From a virus, in the IMG/VR virus record IMGVR_UViG_3300020420_000721, positions 1 to 64,000 of that record: a stretch of 64,000 bases of DNA; one strand, given 5' to 3'. Shown here piece after piece: positions 1 through 26,987 of the stretch. Position 1 is the stretch's first letter, and each line of letters starts with the position of its first letter. A program made the translations under genes and the position numbers. The notes beneath the pieces are model-generated. The model ran no database searches, was not told the origin of the DNA, and worked only from the letters and a program-made list of their open reading frames with translations.

Positions 1-237
1 TATTACTTCTTTGAACTTTTCATCTAACACAGGCATCTTTTTAAATAGTGTATCAATATCACATACTGCTTGAATGTTATTACTTGTATCAGTCCATTTT
101 ATTCTATGGGCAGACTGAAATTGTAGTAAAAGAATTTGTTCTACCTCTTCTTGTGAAAAGAAATTGTTGATAAGTTCAGCTGGTTTGAAATTATCAATAA
201 TATCCTGTCTATGATTACTACAATTTTCTTTATACAT
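1..237 (-). CDS. Hypothetical protein, truncated by window edge; possible 2OG-Fe(II) oxygenase-like N-terminus
   Basis: Read by hand: ATG at 237 overlaps the sufS end; MYKENCSNHRQDIIDNFKPAELINNFFSQEEVEQILL... stays open to base 1; INNFFSQEE resembles 2OG oxygenase N-termini. Confidence 0.55.
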   Translation of the reverse strand, partial: MYKENCSNHRQDIIDNFKPAELINNFFSQEEVEQILLLQFQSAHRIKWTDTSNNIQAVCDIDTLFKKMPVLDEKFKEVI

Positions 238-18328: not shown

Positions 18329-19714
18329 TTAATCCTGCCGTTTTAGGATACTACGTAATCTATCGACGTTCTCTACTGCCTTTTCAACAGTATCATTCTC
18401 ACTCATATTCTGATTATGTGTAGGTTTCTTCTTCATTAAGTCATATGCCGCTGTTGCAGAGTTTGTTTCATAGTCTTTTTCACTATCATCTAAGTCAGTA
18501 ATACGTAATCCAGCTATATCAAATGCTAAATCTACTTTGTTTCCTACACCACTACTACTTCTAGTCTTCATAAATTGTACTTGATAACGCCCTCGTTCTC
18601 TCATTACTTGGCTTGTAAATATACCAATAACGTTATCTGCTGTCTGTACTTTACTTAAACCACCAGCAATATGAGAGTGATCAAACTCTATTTCTTCTAC
18701 TGCACTTCTATTCAACTGCGATGCCGTTGCAAATAATAAATCCATTTCAACTGCAAAATTACGTAACTCTTCAGAAACAAACTTATCTTTAATAAACAAA
18801 TCACTTGCACTAATTCTTTTTTGTGCAGGCATCATTAGATCTAAATAATCAAGTAACATACAATCTACTTTAATTCCTGTTTTTACTTGATACTCTCTTA
18901 AATAAGAATTTAATTGATTTACTGTAATACCACTAGGCATTTGTACAATCTGTAAACTACCTGCTTTTTTACCTTGTAGACGTACTTTTAAATCAACATC
19001 TTCTACATTACGAAATACATCTTTTGTAGTATATCCTGTTAGCATACTATCAAGTCTCATACTACATAATTCTTCACTTAATTCTAAACTTACGTATATA
19101 ACATTAAGCCCTTGAAGAGCCCAGTTCAAACCTAAGTTCTGTAAAAATAAACTTTTACCACCACCGGATGCCGCCGCAAAAATATTTAATTCACCTCTGT
19201 TAAATCCACCATATAATTTGTTATCAATATCTTTCCAACCTGTACTAACACCACCACGTTGACTTCTTACTTTTTCAATACGAGCTGAAGGACTTTCCCA
19301 ATAATCTGTCCCCATATGTTTTGCTAGTCCAACCTGAACTGCATCTTTTACTAGCTTTTCTACTGCTGAATATTGTCCTTTTTCTAACATATCAGTACTA
19401 GTTAGAATTGCTTTTTCTAATGCCTTATGCTGACAGAATTGTTCAAACTCATCTATAAACCAATCTTTATGTCTGTCATCTATTTCTGTACTTAAACCAT
19501 TAAGTTCAGTTCCTGTAGTTGCTTTTATCTGTTCTTGGCTAGGCAATGCATTATATTTTCCGGCGTGTTCACGGATAAACTCAACTGTCTTACGTAATGT
19601 TCTATCAAAGAAATCATTTTCAATAATTCCATTCACACGTACAAATAAATCTTGATCATGTGCCAAGAACTCCAAGAATAATTTTTGCATCTCTAGATTA
19701 TAATCTTTTTCCAT
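18329..19714 (-). CDS. Replicative DnaB-like helicase (gp41-like)
   Basis: AASGGGKS Walker A, SLELSE, LLDYLDLM, TASQLNR, KTR; TAATG overlap with primase. Confidence 0.93.
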   Translation of the reverse strand: MEKDYNLEMQKLFLEFLAHDQDLFVRVNGIIENDFFDRTLRKTVEFIREHAGKYNALPSQEQIKATTGTELNGLSTEIDDRHKDWFIDEFEQFCQHKALEKAILTSTDMLEKGQYSAVEKLVKDAVQVGLAKHMGTDYWESPSARIEKVRSQRGGVSTGWKDIDNKLYGGFNRGELNIFAAASGGGKSLFLQNLGLNWALQGLNVIYVSLELSEELCSMRLDSMLTGYTTKDVFRNVEDVDLKVRLQGKKAGSLQIVQMPSGITVNQLNSYLREYQVKTGIKVDCMLLDYLDLMMPAQKRISASDLFIKDKFVSEELRNFAVEMDLLFATASQLNRSAVEEIEFDHSHIAGGLSKVQTADNVIGIFTSQVMRERGRYQVQFMKTRSSSGVGNKVDLAFDIAGLRITDLDDSEKDYETNSATAAYDLMKKKPTHNQNMSENDTVEKAVENVDRLRSILKRQD

Positions 19715-20727
19715 TATGCACAATATCCTTTCATTTTTACTTTTATTTTCACAGGGTTTTTTATAGCATTATCTAGTATAGTTCTTATAGTATAAAGTCT
19801 GCCATATTTTAACATTGCATCTGATGCATCTTTGCAATTACTCCATTCTGGAAAACTAACTTTCCAGCCACGATCAATTGCTGTATGAACTGAATCACGA
19901 CCAGATTCATCTGCATCCGGCAATAGTATAACATCTTTATTTAAGTTGTCAATAATGTCTGCCTGTTGTTCATTTATATTATTATTACCTATGGCTACTC
20001 CATCTGTTACAATAGCATCTATAGGACCTTCAGTTACAATTACTACTTTTTTATCTTTTTGTCTATCTAATCCATAAACAAAATTATTTTTTGGTTGCTG
20101 ATTAAAATATTTAGCAGTACCTTCAGGCACATCTCCAATCCATCGAGCAGTATACCCTACTACTTTTCCTTTATATGTAAATGGTATAATAAATCTTTTC
20201 TTCATTAAGCCAGGTCTGACTGCATCACTATACATAAATCTTTGATCACCAGGATTGAAACCTCTTTTTGCAAGATACTCTATAGCTTCTAACATTTCAT
20301 CTGTAGCTTTATCATCTTCCCATTCAGTAAATGGTTTTGCATTACTAGGAAGTTTCATTTCCTCCCAATCTATAATTACTTTCTTTTTAGCTTTCTTTTT
20401 CTCAATTATAGTAGAAACATCTTCTTCACGTAAAAGTTCTAATGCAAGTCTTTGTATATCAGCTTCTTGCACTCCAAATTGCTGAAGTAACTTTTTTAAT
20501 TTACCACTAAATCTTGAACCAGGTTCCCATCTGGCAGTATAGCCACAATTAAAACAATGATAGCCAAATCCTTCACCATCAAATTTAAATCCGCCTCTAC
20601 CTTTTGAGTCAGGTCTGCTTTCGCCATTTACAATGCATACAGGACAATTTCCATGTATCCATCCACTTGGCGCCTGAGCCCAATTTACAGGAATAAGCTG
20701 TCGTACGTAATCTGTCAATACTGGCAT
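19714..20727 (-). CDS. DNA primase (gp61-like)
   Basis: Zn finger CPVC..HCFNC; TOPRIM TEGPIDA, PDAD..G, KDASD. Confidence 0.92.
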   Translation of the reverse strand: MPVLTDYVRQLIPVNWAQAPSGWIHGNCPVCIVNGESRPDSKGRGGFKFDGEGFGYHCFNCGYTARWEPGSRFSGKLKKLLQQFGVQEADIQRLALELLREEDVSTIIEKKKAKKKVIIDWEEMKLPSNAKPFTEWEDDKATDEMLEAIEYLAKRGFNPGDQRFMYSDAVRPGLMKKRFIIPFTYKGKVVGYTARWIGDVPEGTAKYFNQQPKNNFVYGLDRQKDKKVVIVTEGPIDAIVTDGVAIGNNNINEQQADIIDNLNKDVILLPDADESGRDSVHTAIDRGWKVSFPEWSNCKDASDAMLKYGRLYTIRTILDNAIKNPVKIKVKMKGYCA

Positions 20728-21711: not shown

Positions 21712-21772
21712 ATCGACTCCTTAATGGTATTTATCCGAAACTCGACTTTCTTCTATGCTAAATAGAAGTAAG

Positions 21773-22144
21773 ATGAAAACAGATTACCAAGAACTTTTAC
21801 AAAACTACCCGTTTTTAACCTTAATCAACTATGCAGAAGTTGAATATTTAGGTATCTTGCAGAATGTAGACACACAAATTGCTAGTATGTATATGTACGA
21901 GCGATTACGTTCTGTAGAGGAAAAAGCAAGATTTCTAAAACTTGGTGAAGAATGGTGGTGGGAAACAAATAGAAAATTACCCATCAATATAGCACTTCTC
22001 AATCGTTGGCCTTTTCAATATGCTATTCAAAGTTTCTCAGTAAAACAAATGGAAATCTTACAAGGACCAACAGTAAAATTAGCAAATTCAATTACGAAAA
22101 GAATTAAAAGACGTTCAATTAGTCTTGTAAAGAAAAACCTTTAG
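21773..22144 (+). CDS. Hypothetical protein (WWWE motif)
   Basis: Plus-strand ORF filling a gap; TAAATA 8 nt before the ATG at 21773. Confidence 0.7.
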   Translation: MKTDYQELLQNYPFLTLINYAEVEYLGILQNVDTQIASMYMYERLRSVEEKARFLKLGEEWWWETNRKLPINIALLNRWPFQYAIQSFSVKQMEILQGPTVKLANSITKRIKRRSISLVKKNL

Positions 22145-22703
22145 TCAACATATTTAATTGTAAAACAATCGCATGAGCATATGCAAACGCATGAGCTTTT
22201 TTAAAGTAATAATCGTCACCCTTTGGCTTGATCCATACTTCATGTAAAATTGTATCCCAATCTTTATCTAATAGATATCTTTTTGCTGGACGGATTACTG
22301 CTAAAACTGCGGCTAATTGTTCTATATTTTGTGGTTTTAGTTTCCTGACTATCTCAAAATGATTGTGTATATGGAATAACTGTTCAACTACTTCTTTATG
22401 TTCTAATAATTCCCACATGGGTTCCATGTCTAATAGTTCATCTAGTTGTTCTTTACTCTCTATATTTTTATAGATACTAACATTAAGAATATCTAATTTA
22501 AAATATCCTAGTTCTTCAGCTTCTTTATAATCAACTGTTGACAAACCATTAAATGGATTTTCAGGAATCTTATGAAAATAAACACCTGTGTTATGTTTTC
22601 TAATCTTATTTTTTTCATTAATAGTTGCCGGAGTATGTTTAATAAGTGTTAGTAACTTATTTCTATCTGCAACATCAATATCAATATCTGTATTAACTAT
22701 CAT
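22119..22703 (-). CDS. Miniature DNA polymerase III alpha (C-family) catalytic core
   Basis: DIDID, KHNTGVY, ELGYFKLDIL, LKP..IRP, YFKKAHAFAYA in DnaE order; ATGA-coupled start. Confidence 0.8.
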   Translation of the reverse strand: MIVNTDIDIDVADRNKLLTLIKHTPATINEKNKIRKHNTGVYFHKIPENPFNGLSTVDYKEAEELGYFKLDILNVSIYKNIESKEQLDELLDMEPMWELLEHKEVVEQLFHIHNHFEIVRKLKPQNIEQLAAVLAVIRPAKRYLLDKDWDTILHEVWIKPKGDDYYFKKAHAFAYAHAIVLQLNMLTKGFSLQD

Positions 22704-23440
22704 ATTTTTAAAATATTCCCACAATAAGCCAAGTATATCTTATACTGTTTTTCCATTTCTTCTGTATATATACATTCTAATTTACTACATAATTCTTTAA
22801 TGTCAAGAGCAAATATATCAACCCATATGTCAGCTGGATATGGATTTGAATTATCAGAAGCTATTTCCAATGCTTTTTCTTTATCTGCATCAGTTACGCA
22901 TCTATCAAATCCCCAATGAAATGCACATTGTAACTTCCAAAAAGGTATAGTATCTTCTTTAAAATAATCAGAATAAGTATCATACATATGTTTTTTATAT
23001 GCTGGATCATCTTGATGATGATCGTGTATATGCATATCAAAGGCTCGTTTTGGATTAAGAATTATTCTTTCCATATAGTTTTTCCACCAATATTTAAATA
23101 CTTTAGGCTTTCCTTTAATACCAAGTTTTATAGCAGGAGTTTCCCATGTATCACTATGCCACATACCATAACTTATTCCCCAAACACCAGGTTGATTTCC
23201 CGAAGCCATTATGTCATTTAGTTTATCAAAACTTGTTTGACTTTCCTGTATTTCAATCCATTTATGTGACCAGTGTTCTGGATCTGCATTATGATTATCC
23301 CAAGGATCACTCTGTGTTGAAGTTAACTGTTCTTCATTACATAAAAAATTATTTGTTTTATAAGAAGGACTTTGTTCAAGAATCCATCCAAGTATTCCTA
23401 CCTCTGCTCCAAATGTTCCGTAGACGTGTACATTTTTCAT
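22700..23440 (-). CDS. Hypothetical protein, possibly degenerate sulfotransferase/P-loop fold
   Basis: N-terminal VYGTFGAEVG strand-loop-helix; W/H-rich; coupled at both ends. Confidence 0.5.
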   Translation of the reverse strand: MKNVHVYGTFGAEVGILGWILEQSPSYKTNNFLCNEEQLTSTQSDPWDNHNADPEHWSHKWIEIQESQTSFDKLNDIMASGNQPGVWGISYGMWHSDTWETPAIKLGIKGKPKVFKYWWKNYMERIILNPKRAFDMHIHDHHQDDPAYKKHMYDTYSDYFKEDTIPFWKLQCAFHWGFDRCVTDADKEKALEIASDNSNPYPADIWVDIFALDIKELCSKLECIYTEEMEKQYKIYLAYCGNILKI

Positions 23441-24111
23441 TTCATTCCTGCCTCTTCTAATACTTTTCCAACCCAATTATAATCTTCTGGACGTCTTTTA
23501 ATTATACTTTTCCAACTGTCTGGATCAATATAATCTAATACCATATTAATCTGTTCTTGGTTAAGTTTACTAATTAATGATTCAGCCTGTGAACTTGAAT
23601 ATATAAGCCATGGACTAATCTTGCCACTACAAATATGAAATACTGCTACATTAGTTGGCACCTGAATAAAATAATTACTCCATTCTGTATTGTTTTGTTC
23701 ACCCCATTCACGTAGAAATAATATAGTTCTTTCTAATGCTCTATCTGCTGATTCTCTCTTTAATCTAGATTTGATCCATGTTTTAAAATGTGTATCTCTA
23801 CCCCAATGATCTAGTTTTACTTGATTCTTTAGTAAATATTCTGTAAAATCTGAGATATCATCAACACGTAAATCTTCACAATAAGTTCCAAACTTACAGA
23901 ATGCTGAATAATATTGACTACCTACAAAGTCATCATATGTTTTATCTGCTTTAGAATTTGTACCAATCTTATAAAATAGTTGATATGCTCTGAAACCTAA
24001 TTGAACTGATTTATCATTTTTCTGTAAATGTCTACGTTTTGGTTCACACGTATGGACTGCCAGAGTATTTTCTCTTTTAAATTCTCTTCCACAATATTCA
24101 CATTTAAACAT
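23437..24111 (-). CDS. Zinc-finger protein
   Basis: N-terminal CEYC-x12-H-x-C; helical remainder. Confidence 0.7.
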   Translation of the reverse strand: MFKCEYCGREFKRENTLAVHTCEPKRRHLQKNDKSVQLGFRAYQLFYKIGTNSKADKTYDDFVGSQYYSAFCKFGTYCEDLRVDDISDFTEYLLKNQVKLDHWGRDTHFKTWIKSRLKRESADRALERTILFLREWGEQNNTEWSNYFIQVPTNVAVFHICSGKISPWLIYSSSQAESLISKLNQEQINMVLDYIDPDSWKSIIKRRPEDYNWVGKVLEEAGMK

Positions 24112-24452
24112 TAATGATTTCGTTTCCCATCAAATACACAGACAAAATAACAACCATCTTTACCTGCATGAACCCTATGAAAGAATCCATCTTTTATTAA
24201 AACTATACTGCCAGGTTCAACATCATGTATTATCTTTTCTGCGTTTGGACTAATTAATTCTATTTTACCTTCACCTTTAACAAAATAGTAAACTTCTTCT
24301 TGTCCACTATGTGCATGACCCGTAGTACTCTTTCCAGGTTTGAGATCAGTACTACTTAACACTAAATTGTTAAGAGTCTTGTTGTCTTTTAATGTATATG
24401 TTTCATTATCTTTTATGACATCTCCTCCGATGTCTAGTACGTTTAATTTCAT
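24111..24452 (-). CDS. Cupin domain protein
   Basis: HAHSGQEEVYYF..G and G..HRV motifs. Confidence 0.85.
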   Translation of the reverse strand: MKLNVLDIGGDVIKDNETYTLKDNKTLNNLVLSSTDLKPGKSTTGHAHSGQEEVYYFVKGEGKIELISPNAEKIIHDVEPGSIVLIKDGFFHRVHAGKDGCYFVCVFDGKRNH

Positions 24453-24916: not shown

Positions 24917-25417
24917 TTACCATATCTCATTTATAGATAATTGCTCTGGAACCTTATTTGCTTCTTTAATAAACAATGCACATGGAGGATTTGCTCCATC
25001 ACATAATGGCACAACCAAAAAATGTCCAAATTTTAATTTAGGAGCATACCATTTATAATCAGTATATACGTTTTCTATTGAAACGTCAAGATATGAAGGG
25101 TTATACCCTTTAATTGGATTAATAACAAAGGCTGTAAATCCTCTATCATTAAGACTCATTAAACTTACTACTTCTGGTTCCCCAACTTCTGCATCACTGA
25201 TAACGATACTCCAGTCTAACGGCACTTGTATTTTATATTCACCTATAGTCATAACTGCCGCTGGGCTATAGAAGCTCTCTAAGAATACTAAAGGAATAAA
25301 ATAGTAATCTATGTTTCCTGGATTTGAATAGTCTAATATACCATATCTTAAATCTTCTACTTGTTCAGGAACTTCATCTAATTCATAGGTGACGTTTTCT
25401 GCTGTCAATATTTTCAT
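24917..25417 (-). CDS. Hypothetical beta-rich protein
   Basis: 166 aa coupled to uvsW. Confidence 0.7.
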   Translation of the reverse strand: MKILTAENVTYELDEVPEQVEDLRYGILDYSNPGNIDYYFIPLVFLESFYSPAAVMTIGEYKIQVPLDWSIVISDAEVGEPEVVSLMSLNDRGFTAFVINPIKGYNPSYLDVSIENVYTDYKWYAPKLKFGHFLVVPLCDGANPPCALFIKEANKVPEQLSINEIW

Positions 25418-26865
25418 TTATAATTAACCTTTTCTATACTGAATGGATAGTTCGCCTCCTTGTAAAATCGTTTACGTTCAGTTAAATGTTTTTTCGAATA
25501 TTTCGCACTAGACGTTATATCCCAAATCTCGACATGGTCCTTATCTTTTGCCTTACGAACTCCACGTCCTATACTTTGTATTACTCTTACAAAACTTTTA
25601 CCAGGCTCAATGAGAACAAGATTAAAAATACGAGGTATATTAATACCCACAGAGGCAACGCCGTATGTAGCGATAACCACATGATTAGTTCCTTCATTAA
25701 TCTCATCATATGCATCTTTCCTATCTGTTGTTTTCATAACCCCACTAACAAATTGAGCATCAGGAAGATACTCAATTAGTAATTCACCAGCTTTAATTCT
25801 ATCAACTAAAACTAAAGTGTTTCCGCTATCAGATATTCTTTTTATCAATTGGCTGATATATTGCATTCTAATTTTATCTGTAGTCAAGTATGTCAATTCA
25901 GTTTGATAATTATTATATACGGCTGTTTCCAGCATTTGGATAACATTTACATGACATTTAGATAAAACTCCTTTATCTTGTAATTCACTTGCTCCTAATC
26001 TGTGTGTTACTTCACCTAAACTAGAAATAAGTCCACATTGTTCATATTCTTCTTTTGGTATTGTACCAGTTAGTCCCCAACGTAAGGGAACGTTAGAAAA
26101 ATCTTTAGTTAACAATTCTTTTAACACCTCGGCTTTTGCCTGATGTACTTCATCTACTATTACACAAACAACATCTTCAGCAAAATCCTGTAGACTGAAT
26201 TCTGATTGTGCTTCTCTAAATTTCTTTTTAATTTGATTTAAACTTTGCCAAGTACAAATTGTGTGAGTTTTTCCAAAATCTTTTCTATCACCAAAATATA
26301 CTCCAACATCTAATCCCATATTTTTATAGTCTTCATAAGTTTGTGTTACAAGACTTTTATTAGGAACAATAACAATAGTTCTACCATACTGTTCTACTTG
26401 ATGACTAAGAGCGGCTGTGATAAGTGTTTTACCTGCACCTGTAGCAATTTCTTGTAAACAGTGAGGAGTAGCCAGATATTTGTTAATAACTTCTACTTGA
26501 TAATCTCTTAACTCTATAGGTTGTCCTTCTGCAGGATGTCCTTTAGGCCATGATATTTCTTTATATGTGTCTTTTGTAATTTCTGGAAAATCCCAAGTAT
26601 ATTGTTTTCTATTATCTACAATAACTGGTTCATATCCTGCATCTATTATAGTTGGTAATATCTTTTCTAATAGATTAATAAATGTAACCCCACCTACTGT
26701 GAAATAACTGATGCAACCGTCCCAACGTCCTAACTTATAGGCTGGTACATGATAAGCATAAGGCAGAAAGAACTTTAGTTTCTTTTCACACTTTCTCCTA
26801 GTGTCAAGATCCAAGCCCTCAACCTTACAATTTACCTCATCTTTCAGAATTATCTCACATCTCAT
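25414..26865 (-). CDS. uvsW: SF2 helicase UvsW
   Basis: LRDYQ, ATGAGKT, DEVH, GLTGT, QSIGRGVR. Confidence 0.92.
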   Translation of the reverse strand: MRCEIILKDEVNCKVEGLDLDTRRKCEKKLKFFLPYAYHVPAYKLGRWDGCISYFTVGGVTFINLLEKILPTIIDAGYEPVIVDNRKQYTWDFPEITKDTYKEISWPKGHPAEGQPIELRDYQVEVINKYLATPHCLQEIATGAGKTLITAALSHQVEQYGRTIVIVPNKSLVTQTYEDYKNMGLDVGVYFGDRKDFGKTHTICTWQSLNQIKKKFREAQSEFSLQDFAEDVVCVIVDEVHQAKAEVLKELLTKDFSNVPLRWGLTGTIPKEEYEQCGLISSLGEVTHRLGASELQDKGVLSKCHVNVIQMLETAVYNNYQTELTYLTTDKIRMQYISQLIKRISDSGNTLVLVDRIKAGELLIEYLPDAQFVSGVMKTTDRKDAYDEINEGTNHVVIATYGVASVGINIPRIFNLVLIEPGKSFVRVIQSIGRGVRKAKDKDHVEIWDITSSAKYSKKHLTERKRFYKEANYPFSIEKVNYK

Positions 26866-26872
26866 ATTGTTT

Positions 26873-26900
26873 ATTATACAGGTATTACCATAATTGTCAA
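26873..26900 (-). promoter_or_regulatory. Sigma70 promoter for uvsW with leaderless geometry
   Basis: TTGACA-N16-TATAAT followed closely by the ATG, no SD. Confidence 0.7.
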
Positions 26901-26942: not shown

Positions 26943-26969
26943 AAAAAAAGGCCCACCGAAGTGGGCCTT
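26943..26969 (-). terminator. Intrinsic terminator
   Basis: AAGGCCCAC-UUCG-GUGGGCCUU plus U-tract. Confidence 0.9.
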
Positions 26970-26987
26970 CCAAGTTAAAAGGGGGAG

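Follow-up and report, generated by a model that had tools for sequence, protein, structure and literature searches.

The gene described here lies at positions 22,119 to 22,703 of a 64,000-nucleotide stretch of DNA (the window, analysed over its whole length) from IMG/VR virus record IMGVR_UViG_3300020420_000721, a record of 86,039 nucleotides from an uncultured marine giant phage that CheckV estimated to be ~23% complete. It very probably encodes the C-terminal subunit of a two-gene minimal DNA polymerase III (Pol III) alpha of the kind carried by group 2.2 jumbo phages, which are T4-related and resemble RaK2, PA5oct and Atu_ph07. The 194-residue product is a true streamlined homologue of the palm and fingers of DnaE. 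It carries the metal ligands D6, D8 and D71, the palm lysine K69 and a cut-down set of fingers (RP, FKKxH). The palm would begin on a second protein of ~170 residues, encoded far off in relatives and presumably also in the phage of the window, which would contribute the nucleotide-binding motif GVGRGSS. Because the N-terminal protein ends exactly where the C-terminal protein begins, one active site would be formed across two polypeptides. A split minimal Pol III alpha was described from sequence in group 2.2 jumbo phages by Iyer, Anantharaman, Krishnan, Burroughs and Aravind in 2021 (Viruses 13:63, PMC7824862), where sections 3.2, 3.4.1 and 3.5 cover the family and the C-terminal unit is termed "Mg2+- and DNA-template-binding". 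A first-pass annotation of the window, made by a model from the letters alone, had taken the open reading frame (ORF) for a complete miniature polymerase and knew of no assigned function for such ORFs; the former claim fails on the evidence given below, and the latter is superseded by those sections, which describe the family explicitly.

The ORF is real and is read on the minus strand, which the annotation had not stated, from an ATG at 22,703 to a stop at 22,121–22,119. An alternative in-frame start, TTG at 22,724, would give 201 residues. Counted from the aligned start, 51 of the 79 relatives in IMG/VR are exactly 194 residues long, and the ATG is therefore the likely start; the remaining relatives measure 190–195 residues. 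All of the DnaE-like motifs quoted in the annotation are present in the order it gave (Table 1). D6 and D8 are what we take to be the counterparts of E. coli D401 and D403, from the structurally aligned range 397–788. Across 90 diverse family members (alignment A1), D6, D8, K69, D71 and P139 never vary, and at least 90% of the sequences retain D10, H37, G40, R138, K141, K168, H171 and A176. In 80 close sequences, comprising that of the window and those of 79 IMG/VR loci, D6, D8, D10, H37, G40, K69, D71, P139, R138, K141, K168 and H171 are kept without exception, and the retention of all three catalytic aspartates claimed in the annotation is thus borne out in both sets.

Searched singly, the sequence shows its relation to DnaE only faintly. 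Its family is settled by the phage library PHROG: the 194-residue protein is matched over nearly its whole length by phrog_11778, labelled "DNA polymerase" (E 4.1e-69), and the match that follows is the full-length phage DnaE family phrog_405 (E 1.7e-4). In Pfam, DNA_pol3_finger scored 14.1 bits (E 0.03) where 22 are required, and the NCBIfam DnaE models reached E 0.0026–0.14 and 10–16 bits, as against cut-offs of 434–1,653. The only matches of phmmer in the PDB were to IRE1 kinase (E ~0.1) and were rejected as chance. An exhaustive HMMER search (E <= 0.001) yielded a family set of 433 representatives at 50% identity, and alignment A1, drawn from the family, served as the basis of both the profile and the conservation counts. 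Searched against PDB sequences, this profile found Pol III alpha entries from E. coli, T. aquaticus and M. tuberculosis as all nine of its best matches (E 1e-5 to 3.2e-4). It aligned K69/D71 with K553/D555 of E. coli alpha, RP with residues 640–641 (FRPG, 638–641) and FKKxH with FNKSH (E. coli 753–766). Comparison by hhalign with a full-length bacterial DnaE (L120, 1160 residues, with PHP, DNA_pol3_alpha, finger, HHH_6 and OB domains) gave a probability of 70.5% and E 3.9e-5 over 86 columns.

Structure prediction had been proposed as a check in the annotation. The AlphaFold2 model of the 194-residue chain is confident, with a predicted local distance difference test (pLDDT) of 95.5 and a predicted template modelling score (pTM) of 0.87, and it aligns with DnaE from end to end. 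The 16 best Foldseek matches in the PDB were all C-family polymerases (DnaE/PolC), only 2 of them at E <= 0.001. With VIA-align, the 13 best of 579 chains were likewise all DnaE/PolC (Z 6.4–10.1), with 184–194 residues aligned at a root-mean-square deviation (rmsd) of 3.3–4.1 Å, and the next fold followed at Z 3.2; the top rows were DNA-bound ternary complexes (3f2b, Z 10.1; 3e0d, Z 9.9). The model spans residues 397–788 of E. coli alpha, 458–846 of the T. aquaticus enzyme and 968–1303 of PolC, so that ~190 residues represent a DnaE span of ~390 residues, from which the thumb is cleanly missing. No Pfam domain of the PHP, thumb, HhH or OB type was found in the chain; the Pfam searches and the structural alignment together agree with the annotation that these parts are missing; of the fingers, ~100 residues are missing, where the annotation had spoken of most. 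The clamp- and tau-binding parts of DnaE are missing as well.

In Pol-beta-fold transferases, the strand that carries DxDxD is preceded by a glycine-serine (GS) element, hG[GS], which is needed for the active site. The 194-residue chain starts five residues ahead of DxDxD, and the glycine-serine nucleotide-binding element (GRGSS) is not on it. Because an active site of the Pol-beta type needs this motif, the chain is not a self-contained polymerase. The motif is found in relatives on separate ORFs of 177 residues in Phosso (a Sinorhizobium phage), 169 residues in Paride (a Pseudomonas phage), both complete genomes, and 168 residues in the marine relative G001, all of which match PF07733 (DNA_pol3_alpha) above the cut-off (46.5, 35.6 and 38.6 bits, respectively). 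At the C-terminus of these N halves, GVGRGSS is followed by a helix, EFL[NK] and the stop; all 23 N-half or fused sequences compared carry GVGRGSS unchanged. The genes for the two halves are far apart, with the N half at 97.5 kb and the C half at 321 kb in Phosso, and at 59 kb and 15 kb, respectively, in Paride. In G001 (204,772 nucleotides), the C half of which is 73% identical to that of the window, three separate genes encode the N half at ~33 kb, a family B polymerase (PolB) of 897 residues at ~52 kb and the C half at ~150 kb.

Among cultured phages, tblastn searches returned 96 records for the C half and 119 for the N half, with the excess for the latter including, among the matches listed, full-length DnaE genes of Bacillus and other phages. 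Counted by genus, the two halves run closely together (C half and N half: Escherichia, 34 and 34; Pseudomonas, 11 and 11; Klebsiella, 11 and 10; Erwinia, 8 and 8; Salmonella, 8 and 8; Xanthomonas, 4 and 4; Yersinia, 4 and 4), and at least 20 records are common to both searches among the matches listed. The halves are separated by 31–44 kb in 121Q, RaK2 and PA5oct, by 116 kb in SCTP-2 and by 182 kb in Atu_ph07, and they lie only 4.6 kb apart on the same strand in Ralstonia phage RsoM2USA (MG752970.1, 133447–138534). The annotation had also considered a catalytic subunit of a multi-chain replicase completed by neighbours; the direction was right, but the completion by neighbours was not, with the partner 4.6–182 kb away in relatives. 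C halves begin 2–8 residues before DxDxD and N halves stop directly after EFL[KN]. A split intein, for which this leaves no room at the split point, was ruled out, and the halves must therefore associate non-covalently.

Naturally joined forms were also found. One of the 150 family representatives listed is a chain of 375 residues with the C-half match at residues 190–373, in which the N half runs to EFIK and is followed by a 10-residue linker and then by DFDID. Two further fused clusters of 376 residues (78–81% identity) make three in all, two from ENA and one from Logan. One PF07733 match spans the fusion junction (residues 97–207, E 4.8e-16). Such a natural fusion is a classic argument for two separate proteins acting as one. 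No fused form was found in the IMG/VR scan or, as weak evidence, by a word-based protein search with the window protein, and one metagenome scan likewise gave no fused form, returning a stand-alone C half and, through a chance pattern, two bacterial full-length dnaE genes.

These results bear directly on the idea that the 194-residue chain is by itself a self-sufficient miniature polymerase. All three acidic ligands and K69 are indeed on this chain, the chain is predicted to fold confidently alone, and no partner was found on the 86,039-nucleotide record. Self-sufficiency is nevertheless highly improbable, as the hG[GS] element is absent from the chain and invariant on a separate protein that co-occurs with it genus by genus, natural fusions join the two halves, and the end of the N half and the start of the C half fall within one Pfam domain.

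A tree of 59 rows was built from 45 of the 90 members of A1 (every second one), 10 near relatives of the fusions, the 3 fusions and a segment of one cellular DnaE as outgroup; P0283, a sequence with an odd tail, was excluded. The three fusions group together (support of 100 in the Shimodaira–Hasegawa-like approximate likelihood ratio test, SH-aLRT) and are nested, along with 8 stand-alone C halves, in a larger clade (98). This placement suggests that fusion is secondary, in a tree from a quick search without bootstraps that has many forks open and a root resting on a very long outgroup branch (4.67). A single-chain model of the fused form was computed from an alignment (A4) of 32 rows, namely 9 C halves, 20 N halves and the 3 fusions, which was kept shallow because, with many C halves in the set (A2, A3), MAFFT superimposed the N halves on them. 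The confident parts of this model put residues 82–222 on residues 279–547 of E. coli alpha (2hnh, Z 10.8, 131 residues, rmsd 3.2 Å), which places the N half, as modelled, at the start of the palm.

N-half residues 1 to ~80 lie outside the PF07733 match (e.g. P0272; P0198, 1–80) and gave no structural match in the low-confidence fused model; they may be an unrecognised extra domain. As a separate observation, the same two small ORFs follow the N-half gene in Phosso (L003, 1761–2576), Paride (L004, 1738–2407) and G001 (L091, 744–1522), and the second of them is, by eye, a candidate GroES/gp31-type co-chaperonin.

The annotation had read the missing parts as streamlining rather than decay. The opposite reading would see in the gene the decayed remains of a phage or host dnaE that was once full-length, or an inert structural relic left over from the replisome, and it finds some backing in a genome paper that calls the partner (CBB_328, 172 residues as against 1120) a "truncated" alpha subunit (PMC5259590); this protein is the N half. 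The gene is, however, intact in all 80 close sequences, an early stop in one of them (L050) being the normal end two codons sooner (192 residues), and the catalytic residues are invariant. The ratio of nonsynonymous to synonymous substitution rates (dN/dS, Nei-Gojobori), calculated for the window and 78 loci after L089 (a partial match) and L050 were left out, came to 0.126 at the median and 0.43 at most; as the pairs that involve the window are saturated at synonymous sites (dS 1.1–2.0), these figures were taken from the 692 pairs, out of 3,081, whose dS lay within 0.1–1.5. The family comprises at least 7,947 clusters when grouped at 90% identity and 433 representatives at 50%, nearly all of them ~190–215 residues long, and the deletions relative to DnaE are clean and in frame. 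In an independent seawater DNA run from 2025, a 12.5-kb contig spans the locus with the gene intact, and its 4 differences within the gene are all synonymous third-position changes. Contigs over the 5' part of the gene were also present at 99–100% identity in 3 metatranscriptome libraries from 3 studies, one of them (X15, 22470–22738) spanning the junction between the upstream ORF and the polymerase gene. As judged from these comparisons, the gene is a working one under purifying selection and no remnant, as the annotation had held, and the notion of a decayed or inert leftover is scarcely credible.

The gene stands within a strongly conserved block on one strand, with the same order in Paride and Phosso (Table 1). 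Of the neighbours named in the annotation, the primase, the DnaB-type helicase, the zinc finger and UvsW were recovered, but its "gp62-like" label was not supported for any ORF between 23.4 and 25.4 kb. The zf-C2H2 match of the zinc-finger protein is below the cut-off. For the 166-residue phrog_11279 protein there was no Pfam match, the ESM Atlas was uninformative, and a Hint-like label was dropped for lack of Pfam support; an ESM Atlas look-up of the 224-residue neighbour gave nothing usable. The ORF directly upstream of the polymerase gene matched neither PHROG nor Pfam; this ORF and the cupin are variable inserts, since each occurs in so few of the loci. The convergent ORF downstream lies tail to tail with the polymerase gene, shares 26 nucleotides with its 3' end and is found in Paride and Phosso as well; so constant an arrangement might point to antisense control or to some functional connection.

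Table 1. Features of the gene and its surroundings in the window. Residue numbers refer to the 194-residue translation; ordinal numbers give the conserved gene order, and the locus counts refer to 80 related marine loci.
Feature	Residues	Positions	Strand	Loci	Description
Mini Pol III C half (order 6)	1-194	22119..22703	-	80/80	194 residues plus stop; probable Mg2+- and template-binding subunit of a split minimal Pol III alpha
DIDID	6-10	22674..22688	-		Catalytic aspartates D6 and D8, plus D10
KHNTGV	36-41	22581..22598	-		Palm strand resuming where the DnaE thumb is missing; strand 33-42 in the model
GYFKLDIL	66-73	22485..22508	-		Invariant K69 and third catalytic aspartate D71
QLFH	108-111		-		Motif located in the translation
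LKP	122-124		-		Motif located in the translation
IRPAK	137-141	22281..22295	-		Fingers "RPG" motif and a family-specific conserved lysine
YYFKKAHAFAYA	165-176	22176..22211	-		Counterpart of the DnaE fingers motif FNKSHSAAYA
AAA+ protein (order 1)				67/80	
UvsW-type helicase (order 2)		25414..26865	-	76/80	phrog_16, E 1.4e-76
166-residue protein (order 3)		24917..25417	-	76/80	phrog_11279, E 4.2e-52
phrog_11758 protein (order 4)				76/80	
C2H2 zinc-finger protein (order 5)		23437..24111	-	78/80	phrog_11058, E 8.7e-61; same strand
Convergent 129-residue ORF (order 7)		21755..22144	+	79/80	phrog_11637, E 5.2e-29; opposite strand
275-residue protein (order 8)				75/80	
DnaG-type primase (order 9)		19714..20727	-	73/80	
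DnaB-type helicase (order 10)		18329..19723	-	69/80	
258-residue ORF		22700..23476	-	8/80	Directly upstream of the polymerase gene
ATGA overlap		22700..22703	-		Stop of the 258-residue ORF overlaps the polymerase start codon; read from the sequence
113-residue cupin		24111..24452	-	5/80	Cupin_2, E 1.2e-7
Sigma-70 consensus promoter		26873..26900	-		TTGACA-16 nt-TATAAT, 12/12 match, ahead of UvsW
Terminator-like hairpin		26946..26971	-		11-bp stem; promoter directly after

The UvsW gene is apparently the first of an operon and the mini Pol III gene the last. Promoter-like matches overall were not above chance, with 59 found versus 55.6 expected. No T4 late-type TATAAATA was found between 18,000 and 29,500, and this, together with the sigma-70-type promoter, a consensus match only, fits early expression.

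No PolB was found in the window, as the annotation had observed, or on the whole 86,039-nucleotide record. The observation says nothing either way about the replication system, as the record is fragmentary and relatives carry the gene; a search for PolB elsewhere, which the annotation had called for, found it in Phosso, Paride and the marine relatives G001 and G002. A DnaQ-type 3'-5' exonuclease (RNase_T) was detected in Paride (66.3 bits; L122, 50409–50870) and below threshold in Phosso (15.9 bits; L123). None was detected on the record of the window or in G001 and G002 (56–60% complete). As the exonuclease is found so unevenly, a proofreading partner is no constant companion of the family.

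The heavily reduced fingers and the lost thumb could also belong to a two-piece nucleotidyltransferase that is no templated polymerase, such as a tailing enzyme, a synthase of nucleotide signals or modified nucleotides, or a counter-defence factor. It is general knowledge that Pol-beta-fold enzymes include many with non-polymerase activities, and these phages already own a full PolB replicase. However, the fingers motifs that are retained, RP and FxKxH, are DnaE-specific, the whole chain superposes on DnaE/PolC with DNA-bound ternary complexes as the best rows, and the gene keeps a fixed place inside the UvsW-primase-helicase block. A non-polymerase role is thus judged unlikely, and the split minimal Pol III alpha remains the best explanation.

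Several observations weigh against this explanation. The N half was not found in the 86,039-nucleotide record with PF07733, two N-half protein queries or a six-frame motif scan, and it was found in only 1 of 5 long marine relatives (34–60% complete). PolB was seen in 2 of these 5 and not in the three shorter ones (34–40% complete). The absence of the N half and PolB from the record of the window is uninformative, because the record covers ~23% of a genome; the partner in this particular phage is, all the same, one that we infer from relatives. The fused single-chain model is poor (pLDDT 65.8, pTM 0.42, with the palm core at residues 180–262 below 50), and it is uninformative on the interface and on the shared active site. 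The 194-residue chain cleanly lacks a stretch of ~100 residues from the fingers of DnaE (E. coli ~641–739). This stretch carries arginines that bind the incoming deoxynucleoside triphosphate, and its loss may alter the binding of nucleotides or leave the enzyme a weak polymerase. The contigs from RNA libraries have a depth of 2–4 and are possibly DNA carry-over, so that they speak for presence only. Finally, the literature searched (supplements not covered) yielded no report in which a member of the family had been tested biochemically or genetically.

On the split minimal Pol III reading, the assembled enzyme of ~360 residues would be a DNA-templated polymerase without a proofreading domain of its own that works alongside the T4-type family B replicase of the phage. 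An early replication task, such as primer extension or gap filling, appears likeliest from the genomic context, because the gene keeps a fixed place by the primase and the helicase and lies downstream of a promoter of the sigma-70 type. More tentatively, and with the odds somewhat against it, the pair of ~170 and ~194 residues may be the smallest working C-family polymerase known, dedicated to primer extension or gap filling and handing over to the family B replicase. If this were true, it would be a phage counterpart of the division of labour between DnaE and PolC in Bacillus, and a minimal Pol III would be very abundant in the sea. The family would present a C-family core at roughly a third of the usual catalytic span, split inside the palm, and its phages possess a eukaryote-like family B replicase as well; a working pair would bear on the minimal size of a replicative-type polymerase and on the origin of Pol III. 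The rare natural fusions of 375 residues would offer a ready single-chain minimal Pol III for biochemistry.

The window gene is one more copy, marine and uncultured, of the family described in 2021. The present analysis adds rare single-chain forms of 375–376 residues, a strongly conserved gene order with the primase and the helicase, and the occurrence of the gene in metatranscriptome libraries. In the sections noted above, PMC7824862 calls the family split and mentions no single-chain forms, whereas three fused clusters were found here; its authors suggest possible cooperation with PolB in the synthesis of one strand or in repair. In another genome paper, gp316 of Atu_ph07, which is an N half, is a predicted alpha subunit (PMC6102473). 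In a marine survey (PMC9123017), PF07733 was the one distinguishing gene to reach half or more (51.9%) of a cluster of marine jumbo phages. A 2026 preprint on a split phage polymerase concerns chimalliviruses, and its text names neither Pol III nor DnaE.

Among known systems, the closest is the C-terminal unit of the group 2.2 split Pol III (phrog_11778), which the window protein resembles in size, motifs, fold and T4-like replication context; in relatives, as in group 2.2, a gene far away encodes the NTP-binding N-terminal half, and a PolB is found. Homologues of the C half occur in RaK2, 121Q, PA5oct, Atu_ph07, XacN1 and SCTP-2, which are phages of group 2.2, and UvsW helicase, DnaB helicase and DnaG primase surround the window gene as in group 2. 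Unlike the cultured copies, the window gene belongs to a marine uncultured lineage and is at most 51.6% identical to any of them, and the partner half and PolB are not on its fragment. With DnaE (E. coli, T. aquaticus, M. tuberculosis) and PolC, the window protein shares the Pol-beta-type palm, the three aspartates, the palm lysine and the GxFQ-like, RPG and FNKSH fingers motifs. Full-length DnaE and PolC are, however, single chains of ~1,000–1,400 residues with GS and DxD together, whereas the window chain has 194 residues, is without the PHP, thumb, HhH, OB and clamp/tau-binding parts, and would have its GS motif on another polypeptide, as in relatives. In Bacillus subtilis, DnaE extends RNA primers beside PolC, and the phage enzyme would resemble it, as a functional analogy only, in being a second, non-proofreading C-family polymerase beside the main replicase, which in the phage is of family B. 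In cyanobacteria, the products of dnaE-n and dnaE-c are joined by protein trans-splicing through a split intein. The phage polymerase would likewise be a C-family enzyme made from two distant genes but, unlike the cyanobacterial one, it is split without intein halves and at a different point, within the palm.

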